Positions 5,343-52,535 are shown, counted from the first letter of the stretch. The stretch is DNA of 52,535 bases from Patescibacteria group bacterium (GCA_020148145.1 JAHCRE010000019.1:1-52535); one strand, 5' to 3'. Translations and numbers: made by a program. Notes: generated by a model from the sequence alone, not told the origin.

Positions 5343-5391
5343 CCAATTTTAGCTGAAACTGAATTAGCCTATTGGTTTACGAAGTCAATAG

Positions 5392-6210
5392 ATGTCAATT
5401 ATGAATAAAGTAAGTAGGGTAAGGGTTGAGAAAAGTTTAAAGGAATCTATTTTGAAGGCAGTGGATTTGATTGGTGGTTTTAAGCGATTTATAAGTCCTA
5501 CTGATGTAGTTTTATTAAAGCCCAATTTCAATACCGCCGATCCTTTTCCAGCCTCTACTGATTTGGGTTTTCTAAAAACTGTAACTGAATTAGTTTATAA
5601 TTGTGGGGCTAAGATAGTAATGATCGGTGATTCTTCTACTATGAGCTCCAATTGCCGAAAGATAATGGAGGGACTTGGAGTTTTTAATTTGGAAAATATG
5701 GAAAGACCTCCCCGGATTTATGTTTTTGAGGAACGCGAATGGGTGACAAAAGAAATACCCGGAGCTAAGTATTTAAAAAAGGTTTCTGTAACAGAATATT
5801 TAGACCGAGCCGATAAATTAATCCTTCTTCCTTGTCTTAAAACCCACTCCCAGGCCCAGTTTTCAGGAAGCCTAAAGCTCTCTGTTGGTTTTATGAAGCC
5901 CTTTCAACGAGTTCGTCTTCATCTCGGGCACACTCAAGAGAAAATAGCCGAGTTGAACAAAATTATCAATCCTGATTTGGTTATTATGGATGCTAGAAAA
6001 TGTTTTATTAATAAAGGACCTGCAAAGGGGGAGGTTCGGGAGCCGGGATTAATTTTAGCTTCAACTGACAGAATCGCTCTTGATGTTGAGGGTATAAAAA
6101 TAATTCAAAGTTTTAGAGGTAATTCGCTTAAAGATATTGATCCCTGGGAATTACCCCAAATTAAAAGAGCAGTAGAATTTGGCATCGGGGTAAAAAGCAA
6201 ATATGAATAA
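5392..6210 (+). CDS. DUF362 domain protein
   Basis: VVLLKPNFNTADP and LPCLKTHSQAQFSGSLK motifs are typical of DUF362. Confidence 0.55.
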   Translation: MSIMNKVSRVRVEKSLKESILKAVDLIGGFKRFISPTDVVLLKPNFNTADPFPASTDLGFLKTVTELVYNCGAKIVMIGDSSTMSSNCRKIMEGLGVFNLENMERPPRIYVFEEREWVTKEIPGAKYLKKVSVTEYLDRADKLILLPCLKTHSQAQFSGSLKLSVGFMKPFQRVRLHLGHTQEKIAELNKIINPDLVIMDARKCFINKGPAKGEVREPGLILASTDRIALDVEGIKIIQSFRGNSLKDIDPWELPQIKRAVEFGIGVKSKYE

Positions 6211-7006
6211 AAATTTTGTCATTATTTTGGCTTTAATTCTAATAGTGGTTATTGGTTATTTTGTTTTTTTATGGCCAATAAAAGAGGGGCAAAAGCCAGA
6301 AGAAATTTCTAATATCATTGTTTTTAACCCAAAAGAGGGGGATGAGGTTGGATTACCTTTGAAGATCGAAGGTAAAGCAAGAGTTTTTGAAGGTACCGTT
6401 AATTTAAGGCTCAGAGAAAAAGAAGGTGGGATTTTAGTTGAAGATATTGTAACGGCCCAAAGTCCAGAAATTGGTCAGTTTGGGCCCTTTAAGAAAGAAT
6501 TAACTTATCCCCTACCAAAAACTAGAGAAGGGATCTTAGAGGTTTTTCAGATTTCAGCTAAAGATGGTTCAGAGATTGATAAAGTTATTATTCCTTTAAA
6601 ATTTAAGACAGTGGAATCTTTAACAGTAAAAGTATTTTTTGGAAATACTAAACAAGACCCCCAGGTCCTTTATTGTGATAGAGTCTACCCAGCTGAGAGA
6701 AGAATTGCCAAAACTCAGGCGCTGGCCCGAGCTGCCCTAGAAGAACTCTTAAAAGGACCAACAATTACTGAACAAAATCAAGGATTTTTCACCAGTATTA
6801 ACCCCGGTGTAAAAATCCAAAGTTTAACCATCGAAAATGGGGTAGCTAAAGTTGACTTTAATGAGAAATTAGAATATCGGGTTGGTGGTTCCTGTCGGGT
6901 AACAGCAATTCGAGCTCAGATTATTGAAACCCTTAAACAATTTCCAACAGTAGATAATGTCATAATTTCAATTAATGGCCAGGTTGAGGATATTTTACAA
7001 CCCTAA
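6203..7006 (+). CDS. Membrane-anchored Gmad2 Ig-like plus GerMN domain protein
   Basis: N-terminal TM anchor. PLKIEGKARVFEGTVNLRL is Gmad2-like. VKVFFGN..DRVYPAERRI..ALEELLKGPT..GVKIQSLTIENGVAKVDF is GerMN-like. The start overlaps the upstream gene by 8 nt. Confidence 0.65.
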   Translation: MNKNFVIILALILIVVIGYFVFLWPIKEGQKPEEISNIIVFNPKEGDEVGLPLKIEGKARVFEGTVNLRLREKEGGILVEDIVTAQSPEIGQFGPFKKELTYPLPKTREGILEVFQISAKDGSEIDKVIIPLKFKTVESLTVKVFFGNTKQDPQVLYCDRVYPAERRIAKTQALARAALEELLKGPTITEQNQGFFTSINPGVKIQSLTIENGVAKVDFNEKLEYRVGGSCRVTAIRAQIIETLKQFPTVDNVIISINGQVEDILQP

Positions 7007-7201: not shown

Positions 7202-9193
7202 ATGCCAAAACAAATTAACAGTAAATTAGCAATAATTATTTCAATAACCCTATTTGTTATTGCTTCGGGTTATATGTATGTAATTTTTAAATACACTTCT
7301 ATTTCCTTTCCAACTTTTCCCGGCTTTCCTCGTATTCCTTTTCCGCCCTTTGTTTCTGAAATAGAAGGTGTTGAAAAATTTTCTTCAGAGGAAGATTTTA
7401 AGGTTTATTTACAGGAAGCTGAATTAGGATATTATGGTGGTTTTGTAGGGCTGGGAGGGGCAACAATGAGACCTCTTGTTGAGGAGGGACTTCCTGTGCC
7501 AACGGCTCCTCTTGAATTTGAAGCAAAAGGGGCAATACCAGAAAGGGTTTCAGAAACTACTGTCCAAGTTTTAGGGATTGATGAACCGGATATTGTCAAA
7601 ACAGATGGCAAAGAAATTTATTTTTCTTCGGGAGAAAGTTATTACTGGAGAGGATTTATGGAAGTAATCCCGCCAAAAATAATTGGGGAAACAAAAATAA
7701 TAAAGGCCTTTCCTCCAGCAGATTTGGCAATCGATGCCAAAATTGATAAAAAAGGAGATTTACTTTTAAAGGGAGATATTTTAGTGATTTTTTCTGGAGA
7801 AAAAATTTATGGCTACGATATTTCAGATCCTGAATCTCCAGAAAAGGAATGGACTATAGAACTGGAGGATAAAAATTATGTGGTTTCAGCCAGGCTTTAT
7901 AAAGATAAAATATACTTAATTACCAAAACAAAAATTGATACCTATCACCCTTGTCCAATTCGACCTTTGACTGTAGAGGGGGTTCCTTTAGAAATAAAGT
8001 GTATAGATATTTATCATCCTGTTCCCACAATTCCGGTAGATGTTACCTATAATGCCATAATTTTTAACCCAGATTCTGGAGAAATTGAAAATACCGTTTC
8101 TTTTGTCGGCTCTTCTGATTTATCTATAGTCTATATGTCAGAGGATGCGATTCATGTAACTTATTCTTATTACGCGAGCATTATCAAGTTTTTCTCTAAT
8201 TTTTTCAAAGAAAAGTGTAAAGATATAGTTCCAGATTGGCTTATTGAAAAGCTAGAAAAACTGGAGGGTTATGATATAAGTGATACGGCTAAACTTATGG
8301 AATTTCAGGTTGTTCTTGAGAGATATTTTAATTCTCTAAGCAGTGATGAAAGGCTGAGAATAGAAAATGAGTTTGAAAATAGAATGGGAGATTATCACAA
8401 AGCGCACAAAAGAGATTTCGAAACAACAGGAATAATAAAAATAGGATTAGATAAATTTGAGGTATCGGCAACCGGTAATGTTCCAGGTAGGCCTTTAAAT
8501 CAGTTTTCTTTAGATGAATACAATGATTTCCTCAGGGTAGCAACCACTGTTGGAGGAGGAGGGTTTTGGTGGGGAATTGGTGGAACAAGAGAAAGCGCCA
8601 ATGATATCTATATTTTAGATAAAGATTTGAAAAGGGTGGGTTCCCTTCAAGATTTAGGCCTAGAAGAAAGAATTTATTCTGTCAGATTTATAGAAGATAA
8701 AGGATATGTAGTAACTTTCAAACAAATTGACCCATTTTTTGTGCTAGATTTATCCAATCCTAAAAAACCCGAATTAAAAGGAGAACTAAAAATCCCTGGG
8801 TATTCTTCCTATTTGCACCCTATAACAAAAGATAAGATTTTAGGGATAGGGAAAGAAGGCTCTAAGGTAAAAATTTCTTTATTTGATGTAGCCCAGCCCC
8901 AAAAACCAACTGAAACAGATAAATATACCCTGGATGAGTACTGGTCAGATATATTAAATACTCACCATGCCTTCTTGCTGGATAAAAAACATCAGATCTT
9001 TTTCTTGCCCGGTTCCAGGGGCGGTTATGTATTTTCTTATAAAGGAAATCAGTTGGAGTTAACAAGGGCTGTAAGTAGTATAAGAGCAAGAAGGGCAGTC
9101 TATATAGAAGACTTGCTATATATAATCGGAGATGATAAAGTTGTTGTTTTGAATGAATTAAACTGGGAGAAAGTTAATGAAATAGAGTTTTAA
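7202..9193 (+). CDS. Secreted beta-propeller domain protein (COG4880/Beta_propel-like)
   Basis: N-terminal TM anchor. TTVQVLGIDEPDIVKTDGKEIYF, RVATTVGG, VRFIEDKGYVVTFKQIDPFFVLDLSNPKKPELKGELKIPGYSSYLHP. Confidence 0.7.
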   Translation: MPKQINSKLAIIISITLFVIASGYMYVIFKYTSISFPTFPGFPRIPFPPFVSEIEGVEKFSSEEDFKVYLQEAELGYYGGFVGLGGATMRPLVEEGLPVPTAPLEFEAKGAIPERVSETTVQVLGIDEPDIVKTDGKEIYFSSGESYYWRGFMEVIPPKIIGETKIIKAFPPADLAIDAKIDKKGDLLLKGDILVIFSGEKIYGYDISDPESPEKEWTIELEDKNYVVSARLYKDKIYLITKTKIDTYHPCPIRPLTVEGVPLEIKCIDIYHPVPTIPVDVTYNAIIFNPDSGEIENTVSFVGSSDLSIVYMSEDAIHVTYSYYASIIKFFSNFFKEKCKDIVPDWLIEKLEKLEGYDISDTAKLMEFQVVLERYFNSLSSDERLRIENEFENRMGDYHKAHKRDFETTGIIKIGLDKFEVSATGNVPGRPLNQFSLDEYNDFLRVATTVGGGGFWWGIGGTRESANDIYILDKDLKRVGSLQDLGLEERIYSVRFIEDKGYVVTFKQIDPFFVLDLSNPKKPELKGELKIPGYSSYLHPITKDKILGIGKEGSKVKISLFDVAQPQKPTETDKYTLDEYWSDILNTHHAFLLDKKHQIFFLPGSRGGYVFSYKGNQLELTRAVSSIRARRAVYIEDLLYIIGDDKVVVLNELNWEKVNEIEF

Positions 9194-9220
9194 TTTTCCA
9201 AGTAAGATGCGAATCAAAAA

Positions 9221-9242
9221 ATCGCCAGGAAGGCGATTTTTT
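9221..9242 (+). terminator. Rho-independent terminator
   Basis: ATCGCC-AGGAA-GGCGAT flanked by A and T runs. Confidence 0.7.
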
Positions 9243-9261
9243 GATAGAATAATAAAATGAT

Positions 9262-9471
9262 ATGGAGTGTAAAAAAGAACAAAACTTAAAAGATTGTCCC
9301 TGTACTTACCCTAATTGTCCCAGAAGGGGAATTTGTTGTGAATGTATAAAACATCACTGGGAAAAGAAAGAGCTTCCGGCCTGTTTTTTCTCAAAAGAAG
9401 CTGAAAAAACTTACGATCGCTCAATTGAGATGTTTATTAAAGACCAGCAGAAGAAATTGACAACGGAATAA
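9262..9471 (+). CDS. Small cysteine-rich protein (probable metal-binding)
   Basis: 69 aa with 8 Cys: CPCTYPNCPRRGICCECIKHHW..PACFF. Confidence 0.6.
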   Translation: MECKKEQNLKDCPCTYPNCPRRGICCECIKHHWEKKELPACFFSKEAEKTYDRSIEMFIKDQQKKLTTE

Positions 9472-9474
9472 CAG

Positions 9475-10233
9475 ATGAAAAAAAATGAAAAAAGAAAACT
9501 TTTTATTGGGATTGATCTTGGAGGAAAGAAAAAGAAAACAACTGGAATTTGTATTTTAGACTACAACCCACCCACCGCATCCTCCCATTTCTCGCTTCGC
9601 TCGAAATGGGCCCCTAAAAAAGGTAAAAATCTTATTTTTTTTGAAGATTACTGCCAAAAATGTCAGGATGTAGTGGGAGGACAGATCTTAAAGGTGATAA
9701 AACCTTATTTAAAAGATACAAAAGTGATTGCCATTGATGCACCCCTGACAAAAGGAAGAGGAAAAGGGGATATGCGACTTTATGAGAAATTTTTATCAAC
9801 TAAAATTTTTCGTCAAGAAAAAATAGCTCCAATCCCGCCGGCCCTGATGTCATCTTGGTGTTCTTTTGCTAGAGAAATCAAAAGAAAACTTGAAAAGAAA
9901 GGGTTTGTTTTAGATTTAAATTTGATTGAGGTATTTCCAACTCTTGTTAAAAAAATTTCTCAAGAAAATCTTTTTTTAAAATTTTTTCCAAAAGGGTTTA
10001 AAAAATTCCCCTGTAAAACAGAAAATCAAAAATCAGCTTTAATTTGTGCTATTTTGGCTTTTTTACATTTTAATTTCAAAACCCGCTATTTAGGTTATAA
10101 AGATGGATTCTTATTTTTACCAGAAATGTCTTTTTGGAAGAAAGAATGGCGTCAAAAATTTTACCAAGCCTGGATGGAGCGCTCTCGATTAAAATATAAA
10201 TATTTAATTACAAATATTTTTGATAAAAAATAA
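9475..10233 (+). CDS. DUF429-like (RNase H-fold) protein, tentative
   Basis: FIGIDLGGKKKKTTGICIL and VIAIDAPL motifs. Carries a GC-rich hairpin patch at 9567-9615. Confidence 0.4.
   Translation: MKKNEKRKLFIGIDLGGKKKKTTGICILDYNPPTASSHFSLRSKWAPKKGKNLIFFEDYCQKCQDVVGGQILKVIKPYLKDTKVIAIDAPLTKGRGKGDMRLYEKFLSTKIFRQEKIAPIPPALMSSWCSFAREIKRKLEKKGFVLDLNLIEVFPTLVKKISQENLFLKFFPKGFKKFPCKTENQKSALICAILAFLHFNFKTRYLGYKDGFLFLPEMSFWKKEWRQKFYQAWMERSRLKYKYLITNIFDKK
9567..9615. repeat. GC-rich hairpin element inside a CDS
   Basis: CCCACCCACCGCATCCTCCCATTTCTCGCTTCGCTCGAAATGGGCCCC. Stem CCCATTTC/GAAATGGG (9584-9591 with 9603-9610). The loop carries the TCGCTTCGCTC motif seen in other copies. Confidence 0.55.
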
Positions 10234-12834: not shown

Positions 12835-13749
12835 ATGATAAAAAAAACTAAAATTGGAATCCCGAGAGCACTATTTTATTGGAAAAAACCTTATTTTTGG
12901 GAGAGTTTTTTTGAAAATTTAGGATTAGAAGTTATTTTGTCTCCAGAAACTAATAAAGAAATTGTTGAAAAAGGAGTAGGGGCGGCTGATCCCGAGGCCT
13001 GCTTTGCCACCAAGGTTTTTTTTGGCCATATCTTGTTCTTGGAAGGAAAAGTAGATTATATTTTTGTTCCACGACTGAAAACAAATGAGGAAAAACTGGA
13101 ATACTGTCCAAAATTTTTTGGAATCCCAGAATTGGCTCAAATTTTAGTTAAGACCAGAATTTTAACTGAAACTTTTGATGAAAGAAAAAGGGAATTTAAA
13201 ACGGACCTCAAGAAGCTAGGAGAAAAATTGAATAAAGACCCAGTAATAATAGAAAAGGCAATAAAGGCTGCCTTTTTAAAAGAAAAAGAGTTAGAGGAAA
13301 GGCAAAAAAAAGATTTTTTTAAAAAAATAAAATCTAAAAAACAAAAAGTGGTTTTAATTTCTCATCCCTACAACTTATATGACGATTATGTTAATGTTGG
13401 AATAAAAAAGAAATTAGAGAAATTAGACACTGAAGTAATCTTCATAAATGAAATCTCAATCAAAAATCAGAAAGGAGAAGGCGAAAATCAAAAAGTAGAT
13501 TATCCGGATTTTCATTGGGAATTTGGCAAAGAAATGATGGAAAAAATTCAAGAGATTTTGAAATATCCTATTTCTGGGGCTATTGAGATTTCCTCTTTTT
13601 TATGTGGCTGCGATGCGGTATTAAAAGAGTTTGTAGAAAAAGTATTTAAGCAAAATAAAGTCCCATTTTTATATTTAATAATTGATGAGCAAACGGCAGA
13701 CGCCGGAGTCCAAACAAGATTAGAAGCATTTATCGATACAATAAAATAA
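12835..13749 (+). CDS. Acyl-CoA dehydratase/benzoyl-CoA reductase-like subunit (HGD-D/DUF2229 family)
   Basis: Conserved Cys contexts (PEACFATKVFFG, CPKFFG, FLCGCDAV) and the C-terminal VPFLYLIIDEQTADAGVQTRLEAFID signature. Confidence 0.6.
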   Translation: MIKKTKIGIPRALFYWKKPYFWESFFENLGLEVILSPETNKEIVEKGVGAADPEACFATKVFFGHILFLEGKVDYIFVPRLKTNEEKLEYCPKFFGIPELAQILVKTRILTETFDERKREFKTDLKKLGEKLNKDPVIIEKAIKAAFLKEKELEERQKKDFFKKIKSKKQKVVLISHPYNLYDDYVNVGIKKKLEKLDTEVIFINEISIKNQKGEGENQKVDYPDFHWEFGKEMMEKIQEILKYPISGAIEISSFLCGCDAVLKEFVEKVFKQNKVPFLYLIIDEQTADAGVQTRLEAFIDTIK

Positions 13750-29314: not shown

Positions 29315-29386
29315 TGCCCTTGAGAGGAATCGAACCCCTATCTCAAGCTCCGGAGGCTCGCGTTCTATCCGTTGAACTACAAGGGC
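29315..29386 (-). tRNA. tRNA-Arg (anticodon CCG)
   Basis: 72-nt cloverleaf folded by hand. Acceptor GCCCTTG/CAAGGGC, D stem GTTC/GAAC, anticodon stem CGAGC/GCTTG with loop CTCCGGA, T arm AGGGG-TTCGATT-CCTCT, discriminator A. No encoded CCA. Confidence 0.9.
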
Positions 29387-46757: not shown

Positions 46758-47126
46758 TTATTTGAGGGCGTTTTTTATCTTATCAATAATTTCTCCTGGG
46801 GTGAAGTGGGCCTTAATTAAATAATCCACTGCCCCCAGTTTTAGCCCTCTTTCGATATCATCTTTTTGACCAAGATTAGAGAGAATAATTACCGGAATTT
46901 GGACTAGGGTTGGCTCTTCTTTCATCCGGGAGAGAACCTCAAAACCATCTATTCCTGGTAAGATAAGGTCAAGCAAAATTAGATCTGGTTTCTCGGCTTT
47001 AATCTTTTTTATTCCTTCCTCTCCATCAACTGCTTCAAAAGTCTTATAGCCTTCTTTTACGAGTTTTTGAGCAATTAACTCTCTCAAAAACTTATCATCC
47101 TCAATAATGAGAATATTTTTTGGCAT
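46758..47126 (-). CDS. Single-domain response regulator (CheY-like receiver)
   Basis: ILIIEDD, phospho-acceptor context LILLDLILPGIDG, IPVIILSN, K in LIKAHF. Confidence 0.9.
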   Translation of the reverse strand: MPKNILIIEDDKFLRELIAQKLVKEGYKTFEAVDGEEGIKKIKAEKPDLILLDLILPGIDGFEVLSRMKEEPTLVQIPVIILSNLGQKDDIERGLKLGAVDYLIKAHFTPGEIIDKIKNALK

Positions 47127-47163
47127 GGTTTAAATTTAATTTAGTAATCTCTTAATTGCTTCT

Positions 47164-47535
47164 TTACTTTCCTATTTGTTTAACCACCTTATCAATTACC
47201 TCCTGGGGATCAAATTCTGTTTTAATTAACCAGTCTTTTGCACCTAATTCCTGGGCTTTACTCAATTCAACTGGTTGGCCAGAGTTGGAAATAATAATTA
47301 TTGGAATTTCCTTTAGCTCAGGATCTTTACTCATTTCCTCCATCACTTCAAATCCTCCCATTTTTGGCATAACAATGTCCAGTAAAACAAGATCGGGTTT
47401 TACTTCTCTCATTACTTCTAGTCCTTCTTCTCCGTTTTTGGCTACGGAAATATCATAACCTTCCTTGGTTAGTTTTTTTTGGAGGAGATCAATCATAATC
47501 TCCTCGTCTTCAATTAGTAGAATTTTTTTTGGCAT
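47164..47535 (-). CDS. Single-domain response regulator (CheY-like receiver)
   Basis: ILLIEDE, LVLLDIVMPKMGG, IPIIIISN, WLIKTEF. Confidence 0.9.
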   Translation of the reverse strand: MPKKILLIEDEEIMIDLLQKKLTKEGYDISVAKNGEEGLEVMREVKPDLVLLDIVMPKMGGFEVMEEMSKDPELKEIPIIIISNSGQPVELSKAQELGAKDWLIKTEFDPQEVIDKVVKQIGK

Positions 47536-47615
47536 ATTGGAGTTTCTTTAATTATATTTTACCTTTTTTTAAAAAATTTGTTAAGTAATTTTAATTACCC
47601 GCAATTGGCAAGAGG

Positions 47616-48293
47616 CTAGATTTTCATCCCAAATGCTTTATATATTAAGATTGCTCCTATTGTATATCCTATTCTGGCGAAAATTGGAGAAATAAATACA
47701 CATAAAAGGGCTGGAAGAAATAAAAGTAAAATACCCAATCCATAAAGTAATCCTTTTATTTTCCCCTTTTTCTCCTTTTCTCTTATTGAATTATACAAAA
47801 ATATGAAAAAAATTAAAATAGAGAATCCTATAATTAGGCTGAAAAAAGCTATATTTACTGCATTTGATTGCCAGGGATGACTAATCACTTTATAGGGAAC
47901 TGGTTCAAGAGGAGCCTCTTCTATAATACTCATGGTTGGGAAAAAGGCAATGGCTATTATCATAAAAACTATACCTCCTATAATTATTGGAAAGATAATT
48001 TTGATAAAGAATCTTGGAACAAATTCTTGAAATACAAACCAAAATATCAGAAGGATTCCTATGGCTTGGACTGTCCCGCCAATTTGATATAAAACATATT
48101 GAATTTTATATAATTCGAATTGAATAAAAACATCTCTGATTGCATAGGAAAAAATTGAAAAGGCTATAGAGAGTAAACCCCAGGCCAATAATTTACCAGG
48201 AGAATAGTTTATTGTTTTACTTTTTTGAAGAATCCTCTTCCCTCCCCAAAGAAGACAAATAATTGAAGTAAGCATTACTAATTGAATAAACAT
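47616..48293 (-). CDS. Seven-TM membrane protein (possible stand-alone sensor module)
   Basis: About 7 hydrophobic helices and no soluble domain. It sits between the soluble histidine kinase and the receivers. Confidence 0.5.
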   Translation of the reverse strand: MFIQLVMLTSIICLLWGGKRILQKSKTINYSPGKLLAWGLLSIAFSIFSYAIRDVFIQFELYKIQYVLYQIGGTVQAIGILLIFWFVFQEFVPRFFIKIIFPIIIGGIVFMIIAIAFFPTMSIIEEAPLEPVPYKVISHPWQSNAVNIAFFSLIIGFSILIFFIFLYNSIREKEKKGKIKGLLYGLGILLLFLPALLCVFISPIFARIGYTIGAILIYKAFGMKI

Positions 48294-48333
48294 ATTTTTA
48301 AGTGAGATTAAAATTTAATTTCAATTTTTATTT

Positions 48334-49890
48334 TTAAAGTTCTTCTAAGAATTTTTTAAATTTTTCTTTAACCGGTAATGTAAAATAGAAAGTTGTTCCT
48401 TTATTCTCTTTAGATTCAAACCAAATTTTTCCCCCATGAGCTTCAATAATGTTTTTGGTGGTAAATAAACCGAGGCCAGTGCCTTCAGTCTCCATCCTCA
48501 TTACATTAGCTGCTCGAAAAAACTTAGTAAATACTCTTTCTTGCTGATCTTCGGGGATTCCTACCCCGGTATCCTCTATTGAGAATTCTATTTCTTTTTT
48601 AGCATATTTTAAAGAAACTGTCACCTGGCCACCGGGGAAAGTATATCTTATGGCATTGTCAAGAAGGTTCTCAATTACTACTTTCATTTTCTCCGTATCT
48701 ATCAGAATTTTCGGTAATTTTTTTTCTAGTTTCTTGAATTCAAATTTAATATTTTTTCTCTCAATTTCTTCGTTAAAAGAGTTTATTACGGATCGAACAA
48801 TCTCTTCAATATTAGCAAATATTGGTCGATAAATATATCTCCCTTCTTCTATCCTGGCTACGTTTAAAAGATCATTAATTAAATTAATCATTCTCTCATT
48901 AGATCGGTAAGTCTTTTTTAAGAAATCTCGTTGCTCTTTTGTTATTTCTCCTAAATCTCCATCTAATAACATACGTAGCGTCCATTTAATTGCCGAGAGG
49001 GGGGTTCTTAATTGATGGGCAGAAAGAGAGACAAATTCTGTTTTCATTCTCTCAATTAATTTCTCTCTGGTAATATCGTGTAAGATAACTAAAGTTCCTA
49101 ATTTTTCTTTTTCTCTTATAAAAGGGGTGGTGGTTATTTCTAAAACTAAATTTTTTCCTAAGGAAAGTTCTTTTCTAAAAATCTTCTTAATTTCTTCACC
49201 AAAAAGATTTATTAAGGACTTAAAGGGAGAAAATTTAGCAATTTTGGAAATAGACTTACCGACTATTTTTTTAGCCTTAATCTCAAAAAAGTCTTCAGCC
49301 TGAGGATTAATTAGCAAAAGATTATTTTCTTTATCAAAAACCAAAAGACCGTCAGCAAAATTAGTAATAATTGCCAAGGTTTTATTTTTTTCTTCCTCAA
49401 CTCTTTCTCTCTCTTTTTCAGTATCTTCAAGCATATTTAAAAGAGCAGTCTGGGCATTTTTAAGTTCCCCTTCCTTTTTTTTAATATCAATTAAATCAAA
49501 AAAGCCAATAAAATAGCCGATAATTTCTCCTTCCTCACTTTTTCTCAATACAGTAGAAGCGCTTACTGGAACCTTTCTCTTCTCTTTTGTGAAGATATTA
49601 ATTTCTTTTCCCTTAACAAAACCTTTTTCTATGGTGTCTTTAGATAATATTTCAATCTCTTCTTTGATAAAAAGGTTTTCTACCGGTTTTCCAATAATCT
49701 CCTCTATTTTGTAACCAGAGATTCTTTCAAGAGCAGGGTTGGCTTCTAAAATTATCCCAATTGAACTAATAAGACAAACTGGTAAGGGTAAAAAAGAAAA
49801 TAAATCACTGGCATAGCTTTCAAGAGAGGCTAAGTCTTCAAGGAGGATAGAAATTTTATTTTCCTCTTTGTTTTTTTCTTTTATTTCCAT
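48334..49890 (-). CDS. Soluble PAS-PAS sensor histidine kinase
   Basis: Two PAS-like regions, H-box SAHQLRTPLSAI, N-box ENLLDNAIRYT, G-boxes DTGVGIP and GTGLGL. No TM segment. Confidence 0.9.
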   Translation of the reverse strand: MEIKEKNKEENKISILLEDLASLESYASDLFSFLPLPVCLISSIGIILEANPALERISGYKIEEIIGKPVENLFIKEEIEILSKDTIEKGFVKGKEINIFTKEKRKVPVSASTVLRKSEEGEIIGYFIGFFDLIDIKKKEGELKNAQTALLNMLEDTEKERERVEEEKNKTLAIITNFADGLLVFDKENNLLLINPQAEDFFEIKAKKIVGKSISKIAKFSPFKSLINLFGEEIKKIFRKELSLGKNLVLEITTTPFIREKEKLGTLVILHDITREKLIERMKTEFVSLSAHQLRTPLSAIKWTLRMLLDGDLGEITKEQRDFLKKTYRSNERMINLINDLLNVARIEEGRYIYRPIFANIEEIVRSVINSFNEEIERKNIKFEFKKLEKKLPKILIDTEKMKVVIENLLDNAIRYTFPGGQVTVSLKYAKKEIEFSIEDTGVGIPEDQQERVFTKFFRAANVMRMETEGTGLGLFTTKNIIEAHGGKIWFESKENKGTTFYFTLPVKEKFKKFLEEL

Positions 49891-50489
49891 TTTATTAAAA
49901 ATTCATGATATTCATCTCCCCGAAAAAAACATTTAGTTTCTTGGCAAGTTATTTTAGGGCTTTTCACCATTAGCTGAAAGGGCCCAGGGAAATAACCTTC
50001 TAGATAGCGACAATAAACAGGGTGGAGATTAAAATTTTTCAACTGGATAATAGCATATTTTTTTTCTTCATTTAGTTCAACCGGAACTAATTCACCAACA
50101 GTCCAATGTTTTCTCCAAAGTTTTGAGGTCTGTTTATTAAAAGCTAATTTGAGAGAAAAAACATATTTTATAAAAAACTTAACAATCAAGGAGACCTTAG
50201 TGGCAAAAATTCCCATCTCTTTAATTTTTTCATCATTAAAATTAAAAATTTTCTTAATGGCTAAAAGAGAAAGGGCCCTTAACCCCACTGGATAAAAAGC
50301 CATGGTCTTAATTTCTTTATATTTTATTGGATAACCTAATTTCTCTAGTTCATCTTCTAATTCTTTTAAACCTTCTTTCCCTTTTTCTTTAAAGATAAAT
50401 TCTCCATCGGTTTTGAAAACCACCCCCCTTACTTCACCTTTAATTTCCATTAATTTTTTAACAGTTTCTTTTGTAAGTTCCTGATTCAT
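49881..50489 (-). CDS. V4R/DUF2378-like putative ligand-binding protein, paralogue A2
   Basis: 202 aa. Ends ITCQETKCFFRGDEYHEFLIKWK. Conserved C-x21-C-x4-C-x7-H pattern. 10-nt overlap with the kinase start. Confidence 0.4.
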   Translation of the reverse strand: MNQELTKETVKKLMEIKGEVRGVVFKTDGEFIFKEKGKEGLKELEDELEKLGYPIKYKEIKTMAFYPVGLRALSLLAIKKIFNFNDEKIKEMGIFATKVSLIVKFFIKYVFSLKLAFNKQTSKLWRKHWTVGELVPVELNEEKKYAIIQLKNFNLHPVYCRYLEGYFPGPFQLMVKSPKITCQETKCFFRGDEYHEFLIKWK

Positions 50490-50510
50490 GCAAAAATATT
50501 TTAAATAGTT

Positions 50511-51089
50511 TTATAATTGGCCTTTATTTTTTAATTCTTTTTTAAGTCTCTCAATCTCTTTTTTAAGTTCAATCATTTTTAATTCTCGGCCAACAGCTAC
50601 TTTTCGAAATTTTTCTAACTCTTCCATTTTTTTTTGGAGTTCTTTAGTTCTTTCACTAACTTGTCGCTTCAATTCCTCTCGGAATTTTTTACTCTCGCGG
50701 ATATCAACAAAGGCAAGGAAAAACCCAATAATGTTTCCTTTTCTATCTTCCCGGGCACGAGAATAAACAGCCACTGCTACCTTCTCGCTCTTTTTGGTTA
50801 ATAAATCTGTCTCTCGATTACTTAAGCCCCTTTTTTTGAGGGTCTGATCTATAATCTCTGAAGCTTCTTTTTCGGCCAAAACAGAACTAAGGTGTTTTCC
50901 AGATATTTCTGAGATTGTCCACAAAGAAAAATCTTCAAAAGCCCGATTAACATCTAAAATAAAGCCTTTGGAACTGAGATAGCTAAGAGCTAAAGGTAAA
51001 AATTGCCAGAGGCTTTTAGTATAGTCGGTTAAACCTTCTAAATGTTGTGACAAAATTTCTAATTCACTCTTTCTAATTTTTTTTCCCAT
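50511..51089 (-). CDS. PAS domain plus coiled-coil protein (no output domain)
   Basis: The PAS region resembles the N-terminal PAS of the kinase (LWQFLPLALSYLSSKGFILDVN against LFSFLPLPVCLISSIGIILEAN). C-terminal heptad-rich helix ending VAVGRELKMIELKKEIERLKKEL. Confidence 0.6.
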   Translation of the reverse strand: MGKKIRKSELEILSQHLEGLTDYTKSLWQFLPLALSYLSSKGFILDVNRAFEDFSLWTISEISGKHLSSVLAEKEASEIIDQTLKKRGLSNRETDLLTKKSEKVAVAVYSRAREDRKGNIIGFFLAFVDIRESKKFREELKRQVSERTKELQKKMEELEKFRKVAVGRELKMIELKKEIERLKKELKNKGQL

Positions 51090-51110
51090 GAATTAATTTA
51101 AATTTCTTTT

Positions 51111-51734
51111 CTATTTTTCCCAGGTAACTTTGAATAGATGGCCTTCCCCTTTTCCTTTTAGACAACATTTTACCTCTCGGCATTTCGGTTCTTTAACTAT
51201 ATAAGAGACGATCTGTTGAATAACTCCTTCCATATATCGGCAGTAAACTTGATGACCAGGGAAATCCTTAAGAATTAAAAGGACGCATCTTTCTTTTTCA
51301 TTTAAGTCAATACCCTCCATTTTCCCAACTGTATAATACATATTCCAATAATTAGATATCTCTTGAAAACACTTTCTCATCGTAACAAAGTATTTCATCA
51401 TTATTTTGGTAATTAAAGAAATCTTTTGAGCATTAGCACCCATTCGACGAATCGTCTCATCGTCCCATTCAAACAGTTCTTTAGCTACTAGAACTGAAAG
51501 TAAGTAATATCCTACGGGATACCATTTAAAATTTTTAAGCTCCCGATATTTTAGAGGATAGCCCAATTCAGCCATTGCCTTCTCAACTTTTTTTACTCCC
51601 TCTTCTCCTTTTTCTTTTAAAATAAAATCAAGATCCTCGATGAGGCCAGTACCAATGAGCTTGCCAGGAAGAGATATTAATCTTTTAATTTCTTTTTTAG
51701 AGATTTTTTTTCTAGTTTTAGAAGTTTTTTTCAT
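51111..51734 (-). CDS. V4R/DUF2378-like putative ligand-binding protein, paralogue B
   Basis: 207 aa, basic N-terminal tail. Shares LGYPLKYRELK..WYPVG and YCRYMEG..KCREVKCCLKGKGEGHLF with paralogues A1 and A2. Confidence 0.4.
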   Translation of the reverse strand: MKKTSKTRKKISKKEIKRLISLPGKLIGTGLIEDLDFILKEKGEEGVKKVEKAMAELGYPLKYRELKNFKWYPVGYYLLSVLVAKELFEWDDETIRRMGANAQKISLITKIMMKYFVTMRKCFQEISNYWNMYYTVGKMEGIDLNEKERCVLLILKDFPGHQVYCRYMEGVIQQIVSYIVKEPKCREVKCCLKGKGEGHLFKVTWEK

Positions 51735-51746
51735 ATTTTAACTTTT

Positions 51747-52355
51747 TTATTTCCATTTTAATAAATACTTATGGTGTCTATCTCCCCGAAAATAGCATTT
51801 AATTTCTTCACAGGTTATTTGAGGGCTTTTTACTATCAATTGTAAAATTCCAGAAAAGTAGCCCCTTAAATAATAACAATAAAGATGATGAAGATTAAAG
51901 TTTTCTACTTTTAAAATCGCATATTTCTTTTCTTCATCTAGTTCGAGTGGAATGAGGTCACCGGTAGTCCAGTGCTCTTTCCAGATTTTTGGAGCCTCTT
52001 TGAAAAAAACTCTTTGAACAGAAAGAAAGTACCTTATAAAAAGCTTAACAATTAAGGATTTCTTTGTGGCAAAGAATCCCATTTCTTTAATTTTCTCATC
52101 ATCAAAATTAAAAATTTTCTTAATGGCTAAAAGAGAAAGGGCCCTTAATCCCACTGGATAAAAGGCCATTGTCTCAATTTCTTTGTATTTAATTGGATAA
52201 CCCAATTTTTCTAGTTCATCTTCTAATTTTTTAAGACCTTCTTTTCCTTTCTCTTTTAAAATATAGTCTCCATCGGTTTTGAAAACTACCCCCCTTACTT
52301 CACCTTTAATTTCCATTAATTTTTTGATGGTTTCTTTTGTGATTTCTTGGTTCAT
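51747..52355 (-). CDS. V4R/DUF2378-like putative ligand-binding protein, paralogue A1
   Basis: 202 aa. The N-terminal half is nearly identical to A2 and the C-terminal half is clearly diverged. Confidence 0.4.
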   Translation of the reverse strand: MNQEITKETIKKLMEIKGEVRGVVFKTDGDYILKEKGKEGLKKLEDELEKLGYPIKYKEIETMAFYPVGLRALSLLAIKKIFNFDDEKIKEMGFFATKKSLIVKLFIRYFLSVQRVFFKEAPKIWKEHWTTGDLIPLELDEEKKYAILKVENFNLHHLYCYYLRGYFSGILQLIVKSPQITCEEIKCYFRGDRHHKYLLKWK

Positions 52356-52377
52356 ATAAAAATGTTTTAAATAGTTT

Positions 52378-52535
52378 CTACGATCGACTTTTATTTTCCC
52401 CTAATTCTTTTTTTAATCTCTCTATTTCTTTTTTTAGTTCAATCATTTTTAATTCCCGACCAACAGCTAATCTTTGGAATCTTTCTAATTCTCCTATTTT
52501 TTCTTGAAGTTCTTTTGTTCTTTGTTTAACCTGTG
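52378..52535 (-). CDS. PAS/coiled-coil protein paralogue, C-terminal fragment (runs off the window)
   Basis: Reads ..LAVGRELKMIELKKEIERLKKELGENKSRS then a stop (TAG at 52380..52378). The nucleotide sequence is close to 50511-50660. Confidence 0.6.
   Translation of the reverse strand, partial: QVKQRTKELQEKIGELERFQRLAVGRELKMIELKKEIERLKKELGENKSRS

Follow-up and report, generated by a model that had tools for sequence, protein, structure and literature searches.

A conserved gene cassette of Patescibacteria in which kinase-less sensors and H-NOX/V4R-like proteins may converge on one soluble histidine kinase

We analyzed a 52,535-nucleotide (nt) stretch of DNA from a Patescibacteria group bacterium (GCA_020148145.1 JAHCRE010000019.1:1-52535; hereafter, the window). 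At positions 46758-52535, it contains a cluster of genes for a soluble histidine kinase, two receiver-only response regulators, three related proteins of approximately 200 amino acids (aa; A1, A2 and B) and coiled-coil (CC) proteins without a kinase core. Our preferred reading, which we hold with moderate confidence, is that the genes make up a two-component system of several polypeptides, conserved in Paceibacteria/Nealsonbacteria, which resembles the H-NOX/HnoK system and in which several kinase-less sensors converge on one kinase. A scan with one genome per species yielded 78 related loci, and in dozens of Paceibacteria/Nealsonbacteria genomes the genes are conserved together at a single syntenic site. 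Further, a gene of the 200-aa family (V4R-like gene) lies directly 5' of the PAS-kinase gene in 38 loci, with an overlap of 10 nt in 15 and of 7 nt in 3 of these 38, and the fold predicted for A2 is closest to that of full-length H-NOX proteins.

The features considered here are the open reading frames (ORFs) in the interval 46758-52535, all of which are on the minus strand:

46758-47126, minus strand: receiver-only response regulator 2, 122 aa (Response_reg, E 2e-27, Pfam)
47164-47535, minus strand: receiver-only response regulator 1, 123 aa (Response_reg, E 4.8e-25, residues 5-117, Pfam)
47616-48293, minus strand: stand-alone 7-helix membrane protein, 225 aa (AlphaFold2 (AF2) model, pLDDT 86.4)
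48334-49890, minus strand: soluble histidine kinase, 518 aa (Pfam PAS1, PAS2, HisKA and HATPase_c)
49881-50489, minus strand: V4R/H-NOX-like protein A2, 202 aa (AF2 model and Foldseek)
50511-51089, minus strand: PAS-coiled-coil protein (PAS-CC), 192 aa (PAS, E 1e-7, Pfam; TIGR00229, E 1e-9)
51111-51734, minus strand: V4R/H-NOX-like protein B, 207 aa, a divergent paralogue (V4R, E 1.6e-3, sub-threshold)
51747-52355, minus strand: V4R/H-NOX-like protein A1, 202 aa (V4R, E 5.8e-5, 23.5 bits, sub-threshold)
52378-52535, minus strand: 3' end of a cut gene, 51 codons and a stop (matches the C-terminus of an ORF at 9085-9978 of the scaffold L001, described below)

These eight complete co-directional ORFs and the 3' end of the ninth are separated by 12-80 nt, except that the 3' end of A2 overlaps the start of the kinase gene by 10 nt. 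In the direction of transcription, the order is the cut gene, A1, B, PAS-CC, A2, the kinase, the membrane protein, receiver 1 and receiver 2. The window is contained in a 203-kb metagenome scaffold that encodes A1 (locus L001), on which the cut gene encodes a 297-aa protein with approximately six transmembrane (TM) segments and a C-terminal coiled coil, as judged from hydropathy. Directly upstream on the scaffold are a 313-aa paralogue of the cut gene and then a 5'-3' exonuclease gene and tsaE. Because this second 6TM-coiled-coil copy sits upstream of the cut gene, we count ten genes in the cluster. We regard the ORFs of the cluster as real genes because the A family has hundreds of homologues. 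The cluster is the sole two-component system within the 52-kb window. A promoter and terminator scan gave counts equal to the shuffled expectation and was uninformative on transcription units, and a PADLOC scan gave no match to an anti-phage defence system other than 14-bit coiled-coil noise to LmuB.

An initial annotation, made from the sequence of the window, had described nine or more tightly spaced minus-strand genes, including a PAS-coiled-coil protein between B and A2, A2 overlapping the kinase start by 10 nt, a soluble PAS-PAS kinase without a TM segment, a stand-alone 7-TM protein and two receiver-only regulators with no DNA-binding output. The present results bear out each of these points, and the extension beyond the window that it envisaged supplied the rest of the cut gene and one paralogue. 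In contrast, the cut gene, which had been taken for another PAS-coiled-coil protein, contributes 51 coiled-coil residues to the window, and the full gene combines a 6TM head with its coiled coil.

The kinase possesses a HisKA domain (E 4.6e-16) with the phospho-acceptor H292 in SAHQLRTPL and a HATPase_c domain (E 1.7e-31). Hydropathy analysis found no TM segment, and we consider the kinase soluble because its sole hydrophobic stretch lies within PAS1. Its NCBIfam matches (PnpS, WalK and PhoR types) were all under the cut-offs. Both receivers consist of a Response_reg domain only and are 48% identical to each other; residues E9, D10, D53, S83 and K105 are present, as read from the translation. 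By predicted domains and residues, the kinase and the receivers qualify as a two-component system. In the related loci the receivers of the cassette are never fused to a DNA-binding domain. The locus L068 encodes, after the kinase, a 280-aa regulator (12859-13701) with two receiver (REC) domains and no output domain, and a single regulator of 280-298 aa is found in the same place in L073, L069 and L077.

The initial annotation had proposed a survey of the co-occurrence of the gene set, which was found to recur at one syntenic site across the 78 related loci. The syntenic order is a PilB-type ATPase gene (opposite strand), tsaE, the 5'-3' exonuclease gene, a gene for a coiled-coil protein with a variable head (X-CC), one to five V4R-like genes, the PAS-kinase gene, two receiver genes, fpg, holA, rpsT and uvrB; PAS-CC genes are sometimes interspersed among the V4R-like genes. 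Among the 31 loci that are complete on both sides, 23 carry two receivers, and the V4R-like gene is present in one (15 loci), two (8), three (7) or four (1) copies. Some taxon labels of the related records ("Saccharibacteria", "Gammaproteobacteria") look automatic or mis-binned. On L001 the PilB/T2SSE-type ATPase gene (5388-6701, minus) is the third gene upstream of the cassette, from which it differs in strand, and it is kept in most of the related loci.

We then consider the 200-aa proteins, of which A1 and A2 are 75% identical, and B is 38-40% identical to either and falls into a small separate similarity cluster of the family. Their only signal at the level of sequence is to V4R. Pfam V4R (PF02830) scored 15.5-23.5 bits for A1, A2 and B, within the last 40 residues (gathering cut-off, 31 bits), and matched 21 of 33 family members at E <= 0.1, A1 being the best. 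A search of PDB sequences with a broad-alignment profile of the family gave marginal matches to Bet3 and to the V4R protein MopR (E 0.06-0.25; MopR, E 0.06), which are usable solely for the register of the zinc motif described below, and an acetyltransferase match given by a narrow-alignment profile was spurious. Thus, of the tentative V4R/DUF2378 assignment in the initial annotation, the V4R part is retained in the form of sub-threshold matches together with the fold and the zinc motif. The DUF2378 part is abandoned, since DUF2378 (PF09536/TIGR02265) gave no match at E <= 1 for A1, A2 or B in Pfam and NCBIfam, nor among the 33 members. NCBIfam contained nothing for A1, B or the 225-aa membrane protein, and a prefoldin match of A2 (13.6 bits) was taken as noise.

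A homologue search with the A family found at least 432 proteins at E <= 1e-3. Every named homologue among the matches listed is a "hypothetical protein", and the stated taxa are Patescibacteria, Nealsonbacteria and Paceibacterales. An exhaustive profile search found 702 cluster representatives at E <= 1e-3, 280 of them at E <= 1e-30. The 200-aa proteins apparently constitute an unannotated family restricted to Patescibacteria. Nearly all representatives are stand-alone proteins of approximately 200 aa; the exceptions are two tandem fusions and one REC fusion. The tandem fusions of two V4R-like parts (P0121, 405 aa, and P0122, 410 aa; locus L034) are consistent with paralogues acting as hetero-oligomers, by analogy with Bet3-family proteins. 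The family also occurs in the context of another kinase: in a Paceibacteria genome (L046, 2404-10189), a different cassette, present twice, comprises a V4R-like gene, an S-adenosylmethionine methyltransferase gene and then a gene for a HisKA_7TM-GAF-HisKA-HATPase kinase.

The AF2 model of A2 was predicted with high confidence (pLDDT 92.6, pTM 0.88). When this model was compared with known structures using Foldseek, the top 19 matches were all H-NOX proteins (E 3e-6 to 7e-5, TM-score 0.6-0.74, approximately 192 columns). The best was the H-NOX of Shewanella oneidensis (4u9b; E 3e-6, TM-score 0.66/0.73), and the others included the Nostoc H-NOX and the beta1 subunit of human soluble guanylate cyclase (sGC; 6jt0_B). 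These were followed by Bet3/TRAPP (6aq3) and then by the V4R sensor of MopR (5kbh; E 3.9e-4, TM-score 0.54, approximately 164 columns); a search of a viral structure library with the fold gave nothing relevant. The predicted fold is thus closest to full-length H-NOX, then to Bet3, then to the V4R domain of MopR, and the structure prediction suggested in the initial annotation places the 200-aa protein in a sensory superfold (H-NOX/V4R/Bet3).

The residues of the predicted zinc site are conserved among 75 family members: C160 in 69, E184 in 70, C187 in 68 and H195 in 62. C182, the second cysteine of the Cys/His pattern noticed in the initial annotation, is present in only 25 of the 75. That pattern (C-x21-C-x4-C-x7-H) therefore describes the three copies in the window but not the family, in which the motif is C160…E184-x2-C187-x7-H195. 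When the 75-member profile was aligned to MopR, C160, E184, C187 and H195 fell on C155, E178, C181 and C189, the last ligand being His rather than Cys. DmpR carries an equivalent Cys/Glu/Cys/Cys site. The zinc cysteines of MopR are C155, C181 and C189 (PMC9556785). The H-NOX of S. oneidensis binds zinc through C139, H161, C164 and C172, and the site of Vibrio cholerae H-NOX is a heme-independent redox switch that controls the inhibition of HnoK (PMC7108781). The spacing of the S. oneidensis ligands is the same as that in the 200-aa family. We consider C160/E184/C187/H195 a putative zinc site common to V4R sensors and some H-NOX proteins. B retains all four residues, but its positions 128 and 145 are occupied by Tyr and Cys, respectively. 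Because the predicted fold is H-NOX-like and the zinc-site motif is shared, the family is a candidate new branch of the H-NOX/V4R/Bet3 superfold, with the overall shape of H-NOX and a V4R-type predicted zinc site.

The second group of proteins in the cassette consists of kinase-less sensors with a common coiled-coil tail. The 297-aa product of the cut gene contains S-helix repeats (ARTKEL/QRTKEL) and the conserved C-terminal tail FQRLAVGRELKMIELKKEIERLKKEL and has no kinase core. PAS-CC contains a single PAS, an S-helix and the same tail, which ends 14 aa from the C-terminus, again without a kinase core; its PAS is 34% identical to PAS1 of the kinase (E 2e-22). All three coiled-coil proteins of the cluster end in …RTKELQ.K..ELE.F….AVGRELKMIELKKEIERLKK. 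In relatives, the distance of the tail from the C-terminus is always 7-39 aa, and its most conserved part is VGRELKMIELK, behind two S-helix-like "RTxEL" repeats. The heads that precede the tail in relatives are 6TM_PilS, PAS, dCache_1 (L008), sCache_4 and HAMP (L003), HisKA_7TM and PAS (L068) and a flavodoxin-like domain (L053), and headless tail proteins of approximately 85-130 aa also occur. A search with the 71-aa tail returned mainly short fragments on short contigs, in which the tail was found also behind HAMP, HisKA_7TM and PocR pieces. Among 12 6TM relatives, 7 matched 6TM_PilS (PF25323; best E 4e-7); with the same model, the 313-aa paralogue scored 18.9 bits (cut-off, 27) and the 297-aa protein had no match. 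In L008 (7572-9959), the dCache_1-coiled-coil tail gene is directly preceded by a gene for a Peripla_BP_6 solute-binding protein, which suggests that input in this relative depends on a binding protein.

The kinase-less form of these sensors was not ascribed to an assembly or frameshift artefact, because the split form with a V4R-like gene between sensor and kinase recurs in dozens of independent assemblies. Recent duplication within the cluster is indicated by two repeats. A 203-nt stretch that encodes the coiled coil in both 6TM genes is 100% identical (L001 8829-9031 and 9745-9947), the second copy corresponding to 52409-52611 in window coordinates and reaching past the window end; this identity could reflect recent duplication, gene conversion or assembly collapse. 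After the repeat, the upstream 6TM copy goes on with an unrelated tail of 33 aa, whose coding sequence overlaps the beginning of the following gene. Further, a 300-nt stretch at the 5' end of A1, of which 22 nt precede the gene, matches the 5' end of A2 with 90% identity, at a unit spacing of approximately 1.87 kb. Because of the 203-nt repeat and the similar 5' ends of the A genes at this spacing, a unit of tail and A appears to have been duplicated in tandem recently.

The initial annotation regarded the cluster as a disassembled sensor in which several ligand-binding modules feed one kinase, with output through CheY-like proteins only. The core of this proposal holds up in the comparison, given the co-conservation of the gene set, the receivers free of DNA-binding domains and the sensory superfold of the 200-aa proteins. 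The distribution of roles has to be revised: the variable inputs of a classical type are the X-coiled-coil proteins, the 200-aa proteins may act as co-sensors or as couplers instead of merely binding a ligand, and the 7-TM protein is rare.

The connection between the sensors and this type of kinase is made directly by natural fusions. L063 encodes a 6TM-S-helix-PAS-HisKA-HATPase protein, in which the 6TM part scores 21.2 bits with PF25323, and L043 a dCache-HAMP-S-helix-PAS-kinase; sensor-S-helix modules are therefore tied to this kinase type. In both fusions, the S-helix continues into an acidic "TALINILED" helix where the split proteins have the basic tail, and the same motif is found behind PAS1 in the kinase of the window. 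The linker helix between the two PAS domains of that kinase, TALLNMLEDTEKERERVEEE (residues ~135-175), has a strongly acidic sequence and the sensor tail RELKMIELKKEIERLKK a basic one, and the two occupy the same position when fused and split proteins are compared. From their charges and positions, the acidic linker and the basic tail might pair with each other.

We propose the following scheme. A stand-alone protein of H-NOX/V4R fold, encoded directly upstream of the kinase and probably translationally coupled to it, would regulate the soluble PAS-PAS kinase in trans and would probably report a small ligand or redox state rather than nitric oxide through heme. Further inputs in this organism would come from three kinase-less proteins, namely PAS-CC and the two with PilS-like 6TM heads, whose VGRELKMIELK tail would dock on the V4R-like protein, on the acidic inter-PAS linker of the kinase, or on both. 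Several sensors would in this manner converge on one kinase, which would phosphorylate the two receiver-only regulators, and these would act through protein-protein contact on a non-transcriptional target. The physical contacts, the signal and the target in this scheme are what we infer from the genes, domains, predicted fold, zinc-motif conservation, synteny and gene order described above.

Several results weigh against this reading. None of the 33 family members reached the V4R cut-off, none matched HNOB (PF07700) in Pfam at E <= 0.1, and hhalign of the family against Tt H-NOX (sequence verified as identical to 1u4h) gave a probability of 0.2. No conserved proximal His or YxSxR heme motif was evident in the family alignment. 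At the place of YxSxR, the sequence reads D-F-x-x-H-P, in a register set from the zinc Cys and not by a structure-based alignment, and H128, the lone His of helix F, is kept in 38 of the 75 members and replaced by Tyr in 26. These bacteria are not known to synthesize heme. Because no YxSxR is evident, the helix-F His is often Tyr and the organisms appear to lack heme synthesis, a canonical heme site is unlikely in the 200-aa family. As to genetic linkage, approximately 68 of the 153 family members in the fetched loci do not adjoin a kinase gene, so the family need not always act on a kinase. The neighbors of these members are miscellaneous (ABC transporter, MBL hydrolase, adenylate kinase, SIMPL), and no shared partner was found among them. 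In the single REC fusion (P0197, 354 aa), a Response_reg domain just over the cut-off (30.9 bits) precedes a V4R-like part (residues 156-350) whose zinc ligands are seemingly lost, as read from the sequence; this is a hint that the domain may work downstream of a receiver as well, in the manner of archaeal MetOD1. Further, L040, L048, L072 and L074 carry no tail protein, so that tail proteins are not obligatory. Finally, genes in the related loci were called with a simple ORF finder and labeled by phmmer with the window proteins as queries.

The alternative that survives best, although we judge it rather unlikely, is that the V4R/H-NOX-like proteins are non-sensing, CheW-like couplers that link the tail of many receptors to one kinase, with paralogues matched to different receptors and with output via the two CheY-like proteins, possibly to type IV pili. 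Such couplers would suit the varied heads and the near-invariant C-terminal tail of the sensors, the position of a V4R-like gene after a tail gene in 34 of 43 cases, the duplication of tail and A 5' end as one unit, the variable copy number of V4R-like genes per locus and the combination of a soluble kinase with receiver-only regulators. The counts of tail and V4R-like genes are, however, not 1:1, and some loci have V4R-like genes only; Pfam and NCBIfam scans of the cluster genes gave no match to an MCP signaling domain, CheW or CheA; and a conserved putative zinc site in an H-NOX-like pocket fold suits sensing better than a pure scaffold. As for the output, the PilB-type ATPase neighbor with its conserved synteny and the PilS-like 6TM heads are a weak hint at type IV pili, a link that rests solely on neighborhood across housekeeping genes. 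The most far-reaching reading is that Paceibacteria run a modular receptor-coupler-kinase array, made of parts without homology to chemotaxis proteins. Interchangeable heads (PilS-like 6TM, Cache, HAMP, 7TM and PAS) would share an invariant helical tail read by H-NOX-fold, zinc-containing paralogues, possibly with redox input, and a single PAS kinase and two CheY-like proteins would signal to a non-transcriptional target such as type IV pilus machinery for host attachment. We offer this reading tentatively and regard it as improbable as a whole. If true, it would be a convergent reinvention of the logic of MCP, CheW, CheA and CheY, and organisms with such reduced genomes would probably depend on it as their main means of sensing.

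It is distinctly less probable that the V4R-like proteins are effectors or partners of the phosphorylated receivers, that is, split regulators of the REC-V4R/MetOD1 type. P0197 is a natural fusion of this kind, and MetOD1 has been described as an HNOB/V4R-like output domain of archaeal response regulators (PMC5847659). However, P0197 is the one such fusion among the 150 representatives listed and, with its zinc ligands seemingly lost, may be a derived form. Further, the conserved overlap is with the start of the kinase and not with the receivers, and the V4R-like genes lie upstream beside the sensor-coiled-coil genes, whereas the receivers lie downstream.

That the 200-aa proteins are enzymes or carriers that modify or carry small molecules, with the kinase adjacency reflecting co-regulation, is very unlikely: many paralogues do lie away from kinases, near transporters, hydrolases and methyltransferases, and the superfold includes the palmitate-binding Bet3 and ATC hydrolase, V4R itself being named after BchJ, but an overlap of exactly 10 nt with the start of the kinase gene recurs in many genomes, the genes are set between sensor-coiled-coil genes and the kinase in 38 loci, the L046 paralogues are linked to another kinase type (HisKA_7TM-GAF), and no catalytic motif was recognised.

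The 7-helix membrane protein is a rare accessory and not a core part of the cassette, being present in 5 of 79 loci (L001, L010, L016, L021 and L072) and having 17 homologues in a database of 5.8 billion proteins. Its AF2 model consists of seven helices and a conserved beta-hairpin loop, APLEPxPY. Foldseek gave weak, generic matches to 7TM proteins resembling G-protein-coupled receptors (E >= 1.8e-3). In Pfam no family was over the cut-off, and HisKA_7TM (PF16927), for which the initial annotation had proposed a check, was not matched; 1 of 12 relatives matched 7TMR-DISM_7TM (PF07695; E 3.9e-4). Kinship with the 6TM heads of the tail proteins was considered and rejected (hhalign probability 0.5).

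Apart from the cassette, the lone tRNA gene of the 52-kb window encodes tRNA-Arg (CCG; 29315-29386, minus strand), and the cumulative GC skew switches sign near 22-26 kb of the window. Beyond the window, the gene beside ruvB at L001 2960-4150 encodes 396 aa and includes a lamin-tail domain (LTD).

Patescibacteria possess very small genomes and depend on hosts, and how they sense their surroundings is little understood. The cassette is a strong candidate for a core sensory pathway of this group because it has a fixed place among housekeeping genes in many genomes and is the sole two-component system in the window. Literature searches on Patescibacteria and Nealsonbacteria found no description of this system, and no family in Pfam, NCBIfam or PADLOC covers the 200-aa proteins, the tail or the 7TM protein. 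The 200-aa proteins would be an unannotated H-NOX/V4R/Bet3 branch that bridges two sensor families, and the near-invariant C-terminal helix defines a class of kinase-less sensors. Further, the natural split and fused forms of the same kinase make S-helix signaling between separate polypeptides testable.

Among known systems, the cassette can be compared with H-NOX/HnoK of S. oneidensis and V. cholerae, in which, as here, the gene for a stand-alone protein of approximately 190-200 aa lies directly upstream of that for a soluble kinase. The predicted fold of the 200-aa protein best matches full-length H-NOX, and its putative zinc site agrees with that of H-NOX in topological position and in spacing. 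In contrast to H-NOX, the 200-aa family lacks detectable H-NOX sequence similarity and an evident proximal His or YxSxR. The accessory gene is present here in one to five copies per operon and is accompanied by kinase-less sensor-coiled-coil partners, and the outputs are two receiver-only proteins instead of the cyclic di-GMP and DNA-binding regulators HnoB, HnoC and HnoD.

The V4R domain of the sigma-54 activators MopR, DmpR, PoxR and XylR is the sole family with a sequence signal to the 200-aa proteins, and its C-terminal zinc motif aligns with theirs residue by residue. The coiled-coil B-linker behind V4R in MopR-type regulators echoes the coiled-coil partners found here. Unlike the 200-aa protein, which is free, V4R is the N-terminal domain of an AAA+ activator in those regulators; the last zinc ligand is Cys there and His here, and the structural match is shorter and has a lower TM-score than that to H-NOX. 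No counterpart of the phenol-binding His/Trp pair was identified in the 200-aa proteins.

Soluble guanylate cyclase likewise combines an H-NOX-fold domain, PAS and a signaling coiled coil, and the H-NOX domain of its beta1 subunit is among the best structural matches. In cryo-EM structures of sGC, the H-NOX domain packs on the PAS and coiled-coil domains. In the cassette, however, each module is a polypeptide of its own, and the output is a kinase instead of a cyclase; there is no HNOBA match, and the coiled-coil proteins of many relatives bear Cache, HAMP or TM heads and not PAS.

Chemosensory arrays are similar in logic, having many receptors with varied heads and a conserved coiled-coil end, a small coupler, one soluble kinase and single-domain receivers. 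The kinase here is a HisKA-type dimer kinase and not CheA, and there are no methylation genes, so that the likeness is one of analogy only. The MetOD1 domain of methanogen response regulators, which is linked to two-component signaling, is intermediate between the secondary structure of HNOB and the Cys cluster of V4R (PMC5847659). It is likened to the present family by its description and differs in being archaeal, in being fused behind a receiver and in having three Cys. By these comparisons, the cassette would work most like H-NOX/HnoK, would share its modules with soluble guanylate cyclase and would do so with a new protein family.

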